From Blastocatellia bacterium (GTDB lineage: Bacteria; Acidobacteriota; Blastocatellia; RBC074): a stretch of 63,134 bases of DNA. Location of the stretch: NCBI GenBank assembly GCA_043736395.1, contig JAYTCQ010000032.1, positions 1 to 63,134 on the forward strand, read 5' to 3'. The notes under the pieces were generated by a model. That model did no database searches. It had not been told where the DNA came from and saw only the letters and a list, made by a program, of their open reading frames with translations. Positions 25,735-28,218 of the stretch are shown piece by piece. How positions within the stretch are numbered: the stretch's first letter is position 1; each line of letters begins with the position of its first letter. A program made the position numbers and the translations under genes.

Positions 25735-26733
25735 TTATCCGACAGGCTGCCATTTGGGTTGATTGCCTTCCGCTAACTGTTTTAACTGCCCCAGCGTATC
25801 AGAAACTACTATCTGACCGTTATCATCGTAGACCAACAGCGACCGCTCGCTATTCCATTCCTGAGATAAATTTGCAATCGGAGCAATCGCCAATTGTAAT
25901 TGCGCTCCGCCCCACGCGTCTACCAGATACATTCTTCCTGAACACATTCCGTACTCAGAACAAGTCTGCGCCGGAACAAACACAACGCGCTTACCATCTG
26001 GTGACCAGGTGGCTTCAATAATTCTCTTGCCACCATCAGGCATCGCATTGCTCTCAAAGCCATCTAAAATGTCTAAATCTGTCACCCGACGGCGAATCCC
26101 GGTTTCAATATCAGAAATATAAAGTTGAATGTTTTTGTCAGTTGCTTCCGCAAACAAAACATAGCGACCATCAGGTGAAACAGAGAGGTCTCCGGCATTA
26201 CGAACGATAGTTGCCTGCGTTGAGGCTAGGGCGTGATATTCATCTACGCTCAGCTCCCGCGCCTGCATCGGATTAAGCGCGACCGCAAATACTTTTGGAA
26301 CGGTATTCAAAGCGTCATTCGTGTCAATCGTTTGTGCGAGCAACGTCACGCCATCGTTGGAAAGTTCGAGACGATCCAGGGCCAGTCCTTCCGGTAACTC
26401 CAGTTTGCCGTAAGCCACTACTTTTTGTTCTTTTAAGTTGTAGGATTGTAACGAATTGCCCAGATTAAAATAAATTTTAGAGCCGTCTTTAGACCAAATT
26501 TGATTTCCAATCGTGACTTCTTCCGGGGCAGGAACTACCAGACGATCTTCGGTGCCGTCCTCATTCACCAGCCAGAGCGCACCTTCTTTAACATAAGAGA
26601 TTATTTGTTTCGGCTTAGCAGTTGGCGTTGGAAGTGGTGAAGTAATCGGAGAAGTTTTCTGTGCCCACAGATGGACGCTTAAAAAAACGATAGTTGATGA
26701 TAACAATACAGCAGTAGCGATTTTCTTCCAATT
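25735..26733 (-). CDS. TolB-like/PD40 beta-propeller exported protein
   Basis: Signal peptide, WSKDGSKIYF, LSVSPDGRYVLF, WSPDGKRVVF, terminal PKWQP; start probably ATG 26733 (track starts 26766). Confidence 0.8.
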   Translation of the reverse strand, partial: NWKKIATAVLLSSTIVFLSVHLWAQKTSPITSPLPTPTAKPKQIISYVKEGALWLVNEDGTEDRLVVPAPEEVTIGNQIWSKDGSKIYFNLGNSLQSYNLKEQKVVAYGKLELPEGLALDRLELSNDGVTLLAQTIDTNDALNTVPKVFAVALNPMQARELSVDEYHALASTQATIVRNAGDLSVSPDGRYVLFAEATDKNIQLYISDIETGIRRRVTDLDILDGFESNAMPDGGKRIIEATWSPDGKRVVFVPAQTCSEYGMCSGRMYLVDAWGGAQLQLAIAPIANLSQEWNSERSLLVYDDNGQIVVSDTLGQLKQLAEGNQPKWQPVG

Positions 26734-26948
26734 CATAACAACTTTCAAATAAAACCCCAATTCCAATCCTGATAAATATAACGAATCTGGTTCGATACTT
26801 AATCAGGCATTTCCGTTGCCCCAAACTTAACTTGCTATCATCGTTGAGTACACGATAAAATTCAAGTTATGTTTTTGTGACTTTATACGGTAGAATACGA
26901 ACCTTCAGGTCATTTTGTTACATTTTTTTCACAAAGGAACTCGTTACT

Positions 26949-27536
26949 ATGAATCGAACAATGATGACAATCAGCGCTTTCGCTTTGTTTGCGCTAACGA
27001 TTATGGGGATGTCCTGCGCCACATCCACGCAGGCTAATAAAGCGACAACCGAAGCTGCAGCCGCCGCTACGGTCGCTAATGATCCAGCTCAACATGCTGA
27101 TCATGCTGAAGACGATGGTGTCCCACGTATTGCTCCGGCAGATGCCGTAGCCTTGGTTAAAAGTGGCAAAGCTTTGGTCATCGACACGCGTGATGAAGCA
27201 AGTTTCACTGCGATGCACATCGCTGGCGCTATTAATGTGCCTTATAAAGAATTTGTAGATAAAACCAATAAAGCACTGCCAAAAGATAAAGAGTTAATTT
27301 TTTATTGTACCTGACCAAGCGAACACACAAGCGCCGGTTCGGCTGCTATTTTGATGAAAGACGGATATAAAAATGTTCACGCTCTGTTAGGTGGGTTGTA
27401 TGGCTACAAAGATGCCGGTGGAGAAGTTATCCAGGCTCCTGCGCCGCCCGCACCACCAGCCGCCAGCCCGAGCGCGGGGGCTGCACCTGCGCCTGAAGCA
27501 AAAGCTACAGACGCTGCGAAGCCAAAGAAACAGTAA
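26949..27536 (+). CDS. Rhodanese-like (lipo)protein with in-frame TGA (candidate selenocysteine, codon 122)
   Basis: VPRIAP...LVIDTRDEASFTAMHIAGAINVP...LIFYCT*PSEHTSAGSAAILMKDGYKNVHALLGG: the rhodanese fold continues across TGA 27312-27314, with a CxU arrangement in the active-site loop. Confidence 0.85.
27330..27347 (+). promoter_or_regulatory. Candidate bacterial SECIS hairpin
   Basis: AGC-GCCG-GTT-CGGC-T-GCT stem with bulged T; G first in loop, 23 nt after the TGA. Confidence 0.55.
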
Positions 27537-27559: not shown

Positions 27560-27598
27560 AATAGTCTCAACGAAGAAAATTTCGTTGAGACTATTTTT
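27560..27598. terminator. Bidirectional terminator between convergent genes
   Basis: AATAGTCTCAACGAA / TTCGTTGAGACTATT followed by a T run. Confidence 0.75.
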
Positions 27599-28025
27599 AT
27601 TTTGGCTCTTTCAGTAAGTGATCCTTACGACAAGCTGCCAGCGGACGGGCATATGCGCTTTTAATTTCTATTACTTCGTGAGTCTTTCGATTCACTTTGA
27701 CTCGCAAGCAGGCACATCCATAACCGTAATTGACATTTGTTTTTATCCATTGTTTCGGCTTGAAGTCAGGCCAATCGCCATCAGCTTGATGGCCACCTTG
27801 CACTCCGATAATCCATTCTCCATCACGATCCTTGAGCCAGGCATTCGCGGGAGTAGGATTACTAAACCATCCGCAGCGTGTTTCAAATTCGCTCATCGCA
27901 GATTCAGAGGTACTGAACTGACCTGTCGAAAAAATTATTACGATGAAGAGCAAAAACTTGAACGTGCTGAAATGGAATTGCTTTTGTCGGGTTTTCATAT
28001 TTTTTCCAAATAAATCTTTGTCCAA
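27597..28025 (-). CDS. DUF4087-like exported protein
   Basis: ETRCGWFSNPTPANAWLKDRDGEWIIGVQGG...NYGYGCACL; start uncertain. Confidence 0.8.
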   Translation of the reverse strand: MDKDLFGKNMKTRQKQFHFSTFKFLLFIVIIFSTGQFSTSESAMSEFETRCGWFSNPTPANAWLKDRDGEWIIGVQGGHQADGDWPDFKPKQWIKTNVNYGYGCACLRVKVNRKTHEVIEIKSAYARPLAACRKDHLLKEPK

Positions 28026-28130: not shown

Positions 28131-28218
28131 TGGTGCCGAGGGCGGGAATCGAACCCGCACGGAGACAAGCTCCAACGGATTTTAAGTCCGTTGCGTCTAC
28201 CAGTTCCGCCACCCCGGC
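28131..28218 (-). tRNA. tRNA-Leu(TAA)
   Basis: Reverse complement GCCGGGGTGGCGGAACTGGTAGACGCAACGGAC-TTAAAA-TCCGTTGGAGCTTGTCTCCGTGCGGGTTCGATTCCCGCCCTCGGCACCA: class II variable arm, TTCG T-loop, encoded CCA, anticodon TAA. Confidence 0.96.

Follow-up and report, generated by a model that had tools for sequence, protein, structure and literature searches.

Within the window, the whole 63,134-nucleotide stretch of Blastocatellia DNA analysed here (contig C32 of its assembly), a reading frame for a rhodanese-like protein contains an in-frame TGA triplet. The locus raises the question of whether this triplet ends a short fragment or is read as selenocysteine (Sec), and, if it is read as Sec, of what kind of protein carries the residue. 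An earlier note, made from the sequence without database searches, had proposed an exported rhodanese with a Cys-Thr-Sec active-site loop.

Reading frame and domain layout

Translated with TGA as Sec (U), the gene encodes 195 residues with U at position 122, and orthologues of the same layout were found. The features of the gene are listed below; pLDDT values are those of an AlphaFold2 model, and A2 denotes the alignment used to judge conservation.

26934–26939, + strand: Shine-Dalgarno-like AAGGAA, 9 nt before the ATG, read from the sequence
26949–27536, + strand: complete predicted selenoprotein gene, TAA included
26949–27017, + strand: predicted lipoprotein signal peptide (residues 1–22) and lipobox Cys23 (TGC, 27015–27017), from a PROSITE-type lipobox rule and A2
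27018–27113, + strand: low-complexity Ala/Thr/Pro linker (residues 24–55) leading from the anchor to the domain, variable in length and sequence in A2, with pLDDT below 50 for residues 24–42
27135–27413, + strand: rhodanese homology domain (residues 63–155), spanning the TGA, from Pfam PF00581 and AlphaFold2, with PDB 3NHV as best solved match
27306–27314, + strand: predicted active-site Cys120-Thr121-Sec122 (TGT ACC TGA), with C120 and position 122 invariant in A2
27330–27347, + strand: SECIS-like hairpin AGCGCCG-GUU-CGGC(U)GCU, beginning 16 nt after the TGA, from comparative evidence
27435–27533, + strand: Pro/Ala/Lys-rich C-terminal tail (residues 163–195), variable and present in only some orthologues in A2, with pLDDT 66–74
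27560–27605, + strand: intrinsic terminator with a 16-bp stem and a T tract, after the TAA, from a terminator scan

The coding sequence is continuous across the TGA. The local context reads F-Y-C(TGT)-T-TGA-P-S-E-H-T-S-A, with Cys120 encoded by TGT at 27306–27308 and the in-frame TGA of residue 122 at 27312–27314. Beyond it the frame stays open through PSEHTSAGSAAILMKDGYKNVHALLGG and then a Pro/Ala-rich tail, up to the TAA at 27534–27536; the sequence agrees with the continuation into the rest of a rhodanese fold that had been described in the earlier note. The translation with TGA as U matches the Pfam Rhodanese family PF00581 with an E-value of 9.4e-15 (55.3 bits against a gathering threshold of 22.2) over profile positions 2–101 of 102, and the match, which covers residues 63–155, crosses the TGA. 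The terminator scan returned no terminator after the TGA, and a strong one after the TAA only.

The lipoprotein-like N-terminus ending in IMGMSC, also remarked on from the sequence, was examined with a PROSITE-type lipobox rule, which calls for an N-terminal basic residue, a hydrophobic stretch and [..][AGS]-C within residues 15–40. Arg3 provides the basic residue, residues 7–21 are hydrophobic and G-M-S-C23 forms the lipobox (M..R..hydrophobic..IMGMS-C23). The rule is passed by the window gene and by 75 of the 80 genes of its clade, in both of the phyla from which they come, and Cys23 is invariant in A2. Lipidation of the CxU rhodanese, and its topology, are predicted from this N-terminal pattern.

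Decoding of the TGA and the downstream hairpin

The assembly (6.85 Mb in 434 contigs) was searched for the sel genes, a check that the earlier note had suggested, and tRNA-Sec, SelA, SelB and SelD are all present. A single tRNA-Sec was identified, with anticodon TCA according to ARAGORN and a score of 61 bits to Rfam RF01852 against a cut-off of 47. The match to SelA amounts to 564 bits. SelB is distributed over two contig ends, C89:4-501 and C172:15395-16777, with scores of 223 and 141 bits, a split that probably reflects a break in the assembly and not disruption of the gene. SelD (359 bits, C175:23-952) has a single in-frame TGA of its own and is probably itself a selenoprotein in the source organism.

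Conservation of the TGA was followed in two sets of orthologues. A read-through search of 41 genomes from the genus, family and class to which the window belongs yielded 20 loci, the window included, and the aligned position is TGA in 19 of them and Cys in one (L041, with Y-C-S-C-G-A-E-Q-T-S-A). A public scan with one genome per species yielded 197 related loci confirmed by tblastn, of which 80 were kept; the motif is present in 78 of these, in 79 genes, with TGA in 73 genes and TGT or TGC (Cys) in six. The Sec/Cys alternation expected of homologues at this site is thus borne out in both sets. The public orthologues are labelled Blastocatellia or Acidobacteriota, and many of them Anaerolineales or Chloroflexota, and the nearest relatives of the window gene, at 79% and 69% identity, are labelled 'Blastocatellia bacterium'. 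The 38 codons past the TGA show pN/pS values of 0.07–0.54 at pS of 0.4–0.8, a sign of purifying selection, and therefore appear to be translated. A Cys form is nested in the tree within the Sec clade, beside a Sec form, so that Cys is the derived state.

The hairpin lies 16–33 nt past the TGA. Counted from the A of this triplet, the loop G at 27337 is 23 nt downstream, the position originally given for it. Folding of 27306–27380 from the window alone gave nothing better than shuffled sequence (z −0.17), and the significance of the window hairpin consequently comes only from comparative data. When 20 orthologues are aligned without gaps (A1), three G-C pairs of the stem are invariant, and the next two pairs show compensatory exchanges (C-G to U-A, and C-G to G-C or G-U) at synonymous positions of Ser and Ala codons. 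In the subgroup of the window, three further pairs are restored by means of a one-base bulge. RNAalifold retained only the three invariant pairs across the 20 orthologues, and the longer helix was specified by hand because of the bulge in this subgroup.

A hairpin at this position is formed by all 50 distinct Sec-form sequences from the public loci. The apical loop, which contains G(U/G), is CGUGC in 38 sequences, GUU in 6, GUG in 3, CGGGC in 2 and AGUUC in 1. In each of the six Cys forms the stem is broken, a different fold is adopted instead, or the stem is kept but the GU of the loop is lost. The same six forms retain the peptide S-A-R-A-A with other codons, and since they keep the peptide yet alter the hairpin, it is the TGA, not the protein sequence, that the hairpin follows. 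The element sits in the codons for the conserved T-S-A-x-x-A start of a helix, and the Ala/Arg/Ala codons GCC CGU GCG GC- are fixed in most Sec forms; because of this overlap with strongly conserved codons, part of the hairpin conservation reflects protein constraint. The same geometry, with a stem from 15–18 nt after the UGA and a G-first loop, occurs at the TGAs of three other candidate selenoprotein genes in the genome, namely two paralogous rhodanese genes and a DUF1573 gene in the window. Rfam returned neither a match nor a model for the hairpin, and only the tRNA-Leu was matched.

The bacterial SECIS model of Zhang and Gladyshev (2005) reportedly places the apical-loop G about 16–37 nt past the UGA. 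The geometry of the window hairpin fits this model, and the element is predicted to be a stem-loop directly 3′ of the UGA with a G in its apical loop, as expected of a bacterial SECIS.

The hairpin and the conservation data also bear on other fates of the TGA. Readthrough with a residue other than Sec, whether Cys or Trp inserted by a suppressor or near-cognate tRNA or by way of a reassigned code, would accord with the six orthologues in which Cys is tolerated at the site. Against it, ARAGORN found no other UGA-reading tRNA in the genome, which has tRNA-Sec and the full Sec machinery, and the hairpin accompanies the TGA, whereas the Cys forms have lost or altered it. Moreover, TGA serves as the true terminal stop of three orthologues of this very gene (L036, L038 and L041), so that recoding is site-specific and the genetic code is unchanged. 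Taken together, these points leave non-Sec readthrough very improbable. A pseudogene, or a TGA that arose through an error in sequencing or assembly, with a 121-residue N-terminal fragment as the true product, is scarcely credible: public gene calls of the orthologues do stop at the TGA (116–126 aa), but the same TGA is found in more than 70 independent assemblies from two phyla, which rules out a sequencing error, the post-TGA codons are under purifying selection, and both halves are required for the rhodanese fold. TGA conservation, post-TGA selection and the TGA stops of orthologues led us to reject the readings of a pseudogene, of a sequencing error and of code reassignment.

We conclude that the in-frame TGA at 27312–27314 is almost certainly a real selenocysteine codon. 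The gene very probably encodes a true exported selenoprotein, as predicted from its sequence, and selenium would be incorporated at residue 122.

Close orthologues are represented in public protein collections only by fragments of 116–126 residues ending in ...FYCT (P0002–P0014), which are not annotated as selenoproteins. Some of these truncated orthologues have been named '3-mercaptopyruvate sulfurtransferase SseA' by JGI, a case of systematic mis-annotation at the UGA.

The Anaerolineales/Chloroflexota loci L080–L128, which come from many MAGs, carry the same lipoprotein rhodanese with CxU and Glu-His in the loop, together with the TGA and a CGUGC-loop hairpin, and form a clade inside the family. 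The data suggest that the gene for this lipoprotein-CxU-EH selenoprotein was passed between phyla together with its SECIS.

Placement among rhodaneses and the active-site loop

The statement in the earlier note that rhodanese-related Sec proteins exist in bacteria is correct, and the CxU family has been catalogued (PMC9312934; PMC13188914; NCBIfam NF041203). A rhodanese-related sulfurtransferase was already among the known selenoprotein families in 2007, and in that year a second Sec was described in it, which creates a UxU motif (PMC1976440). The CxU rhodanese is listed as a selenoprotein type in PMC9312934 and PMC13188914; in the latter, 'Rhodanese-like form 3' (earlier 'COG0607 form 2') carries the CxU motif. 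The window protein, with Y-C120-T-U122 in a rhodanese domain, is of this form 3 type. The novelty of the locus has to be stated correspondingly: the CxU rhodanese selenoprotein type is already catalogued, and the window gene is an unannotated sister branch of it, a distinct lipoprotein subfamily.

The best NCBIfam match is NF041203 (rhodanese_LYCAU, 'rhodanese-related (seleno)protein'), an equivalog model with a cut-off of 115 bits, to which the window protein scores 70.9 bits and eight tested orthologues score 61–84 bits, all below 115. In a maximum-likelihood tree of 65 domains, the lipoprotein genes form a clade of their own (43 rows, support 92/97), marked by E-H-[TS]-S-A within the clade motif YC[ST]UPxEHTSA and separate from both the D-E-A-T clade, which is that of NF041203, and an N-E-A-[ST] clade. 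Membership of the window gene in NF041203 was rejected, given the score below the cut-off and the separate clade. Both families have a single rhodanese domain with the motif YC-x-U-P-x-E-x-[ST]-[SA]-A, both alternate between Sec and Cys at the same residue, and their hairpins occupy the same position; NF041203 members in this genus are exported as well. They differ in that NF041203 has a type-I signal peptide where the window clade has a lipobox, and Glu-Ala-Thr in the loop where the window clade has Glu-His-Thr.

The same genome contains a true NF041203 member at C365:6149-6472 (− strand; 117 bits); it has a TGA and the loop ITYCSUPDEATSA, and starts with a type-I signal peptide. A further CxU paralogue at C241:1729-2052 (+ strand; 87 bits) has an in-frame TGA and the loop VTYCTUPNEASSA and is cytoplasmic, without a signal peptide. 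Related genomes have 2–4 CxU rhodanese genes each.

AlphaFold2, run with a 19-sequence alignment, predicts a rhodanese alpha/beta fold, the pLDDT being about 97 for residues 60–160. In this model a strand (residues 115–119) is followed by a loop (120–125) and a helix (126–137). The nearest solved structure is that of BH2092 from Bacillus halodurans (PDB codes: 3NHV and 3O3W), a structural-genomics rhodanese of unknown function, which gives both the best single-stretch profile match (68 bits) and the best Foldseek match (E 3e-9). Its loop YCWGPACNGATKAA aligns without gaps with YCTUPSEHTSAGSA. BH2092 is unlike the window protein in lacking Sec, in having its second Cys at +5 and not at +2, and in being cytoplasmic.

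The predicted active-site loop, C-T-U-P-S-E-H-T-S, has no basic residues and lacks the CxxGxR[ST] Arg/Lys-rich anion cradle of thiosulfate sulfurtransferases. Cys120 and Sec122 stand two residues apart and are followed by a conserved Pro-x-Glu-His-Thr-Ser-Ala, in which Glu125 is invariant and His126 nearly so. In hhalign comparisons with GlpE and with a canonical rhodanese encoded by the same genome, the canonical Cys pairs with C120, and T-U forms a two-residue extension of the loop. The hhalign result and the AlphaFold2 secondary structure favour C120 at the position of the canonical nucleophile. An ungapped HMMER alignment to domain 2 of 6MXV pairs the canonical Cys with U122, contrary to hhalign.

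The single-domain thiosulfate sulfurtransferases PspE and GlpE of Escherichia coli resemble the window protein in fold, size and the DxR and HIxGA motifs, and PspE is also extracytoplasmic. The window protein differs from them in having no CxxGxR[ST] loop, two chalcogen residues against one Cys, and a predicted lipid anchor. Identity with either was rejected, as the scores of 38.6 (GlpE) and 27.2 (PspE) are far under the cut-offs of 102 and no anion-binding loop of the CxxGxR[ST] type is present.

Other rhodanese domains are known at or beyond the membrane. ExtH of Geobacter sulfurreducens, a rhodanese-family lipoprotein, and an exported rhodanese-like protein of Acidithiobacillus ferrooxidans share with the window protein an extracytoplasmic rhodanese domain. 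ExtH is placed outside the cytoplasm by a lipoprotein signal (PMC6148476) and is a 49-kDa protein within a cytochrome and porin cluster (PMC5877670); neither of these papers reports a CxU motif in it, and inspection of the neighbourhood with Pfam revealed no cytochrome/porin cluster near the window gene. Proteobacterial DedA-rhodanese fusions with LYCTCPSEASAARVA (P0021, P0030 and similar, 300–322 aa) present an all-Cys form of the same CxC/CxU loop type on a membrane-attached rhodanese. They differ from the window protein in having Cys and not Sec, and in being attached by fusion to polytopic membrane proteins and not by lipid. TsoB (NF045694), a rhodanese/DsbD-like fusion, is likewise a membrane-attached rhodanese selenoprotein. 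Its loop motif is UxxxxU and it is attached through a polytopic membrane protein, and the window protein scores 31 bits to it against a cut-off of 805.

Genomic neighbourhood and possible function

The genes next to the rhodanese gene are as follows.

25735–26766, − strand: exported PD40 (WD40-like) beta-propeller protein with a C-terminal CSEYGMC pair, from Pfam PD40; divergently transcribed, directly upstream
27597–28025, − strand: DUF4087 protein, downstream, not conserved beside the gene
28131–28218, − strand: tRNA-Leu(UAA), downstream, kept beside the gene within the genus only

Across the 80 loci, the PD40 gene is the only conserved neighbour. It is kept in 25 acidobacterial loci, at identities of 37–87%, and is absent from the Chloroflexota loci. 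The pairing of PD40 protein and rhodanese suggests a functional link. The other recurrent neighbours look like lineage-specific synteny; in the Chloroflexota, as judged by eye, they include a protein of about 676 aa and proteins resembling acyl-CoA dehydrogenase and glutamate dehydrogenase. No neighbour pointing to a substrate was seen among the loci compared, and the neighbourhood and Pfam inspection showed no transporter, reductase or metal-resistance gene nearby.

In the mechanism that we propose, the UGA at 27312–27314 would be read as selenocysteine by SelB and tRNA-Sec, directed by the hairpin 16 nt downstream. The signal peptide would be cleaved before Cys23, which would then be lipidated, and because the lipoprotein signal and a flexible linker precede the rhodanese domain, the latter would be tethered to the membrane on its extracytoplasmic side. 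The Sec122 selenolate would act as the attacking nucleophile and take up sulfane sulfur, another chalcogen or an oxidising equivalent, and Cys120 would resolve the adduct as an intramolecular selenenylsulfide. The outcome would be a Cys/Sec relay of the cell envelope that transfers or reduces persulfides or polysulfides. As a whole, this reading, with Sec inserted through SelB, tRNA-Sec and the hairpin into a lipid-tethered rhodanese that operates a Cys/Sec relay, is likely to be right and is the best explanation of the locus. The relay chemistry as such is put forward tentatively.

The composition of the loop and the PD40 neighbour also allow different functions to be considered. It is conceivable, although unlikely, that Blastocatellia and Anaerolineales share, in the Glu-His lipoprotein clade, an envelope selenoenzyme of separate function, whose Cys/Sec/Glu/His loop would handle a chalcogen or a soft metal or metalloid, with the PD40 protein as partner in Acidobacteriota. 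If so, it would represent an undescribed extracytoplasmic selenium-dependent activity. A related proposal is that the exported selenoprotein forms no sulfur-transfer or redox relay, and that its loop Cys-x-Sec-Pro-x-Glu-His binds species of a soft metal or metalloid (Cu, Hg, As, Se or Te) in the envelope in order to sense, sequester or deliver them, perhaps with PD40 as partner. The lack of the basic residues of thiosulfate-binding rhodaneses and the presence of four invariant potential ligands (C120, U122, E125 and H126, the last nearly so) are in keeping with it, as are the conservation of the PD40 neighbour in 25 loci down to 37% identity and the case of a Geobacter cluster encoding a rhodanese lipoprotein, which its porin gene extI links to the reduction of selenite and tellurite (PMC5877670; PMC6148476). 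The surroundings of the gene, with no transporter, reductase or metal-resistance function, speak against metal binding, as do the Chloroflexota orthologues that have no PD40 neighbour and the sister clades with Glu-Ala and not Glu-His; the proposal is reached by inference throughout, and we regard it as distinctly unlikely.

Under the preferred reading of a lipid-tethered CxU rhodanese, the window gene is not a new kind of system; it is an unannotated subfamily member of a known selenoprotein type. Its clade, with about 200 genes in public data (197 loci confirmed by tblastn), constitutes an annotation gap, being truncated at the UGA in present records. Pipelines will keep missing the clade because it lies beyond the reach of the curated NCBIfam selenoprotein model, and a subfamily model would close the gap. 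The hairpin offers a clean natural example of a SECIS embedded in the codons for the N-terminus of a conserved helix. The source genome has three CxU rhodanese paralogues and a candidate DUF1573 selenoprotein, and the gene described here adds to the evidence for several envelope-located selenoproteins in Blastocatellia.
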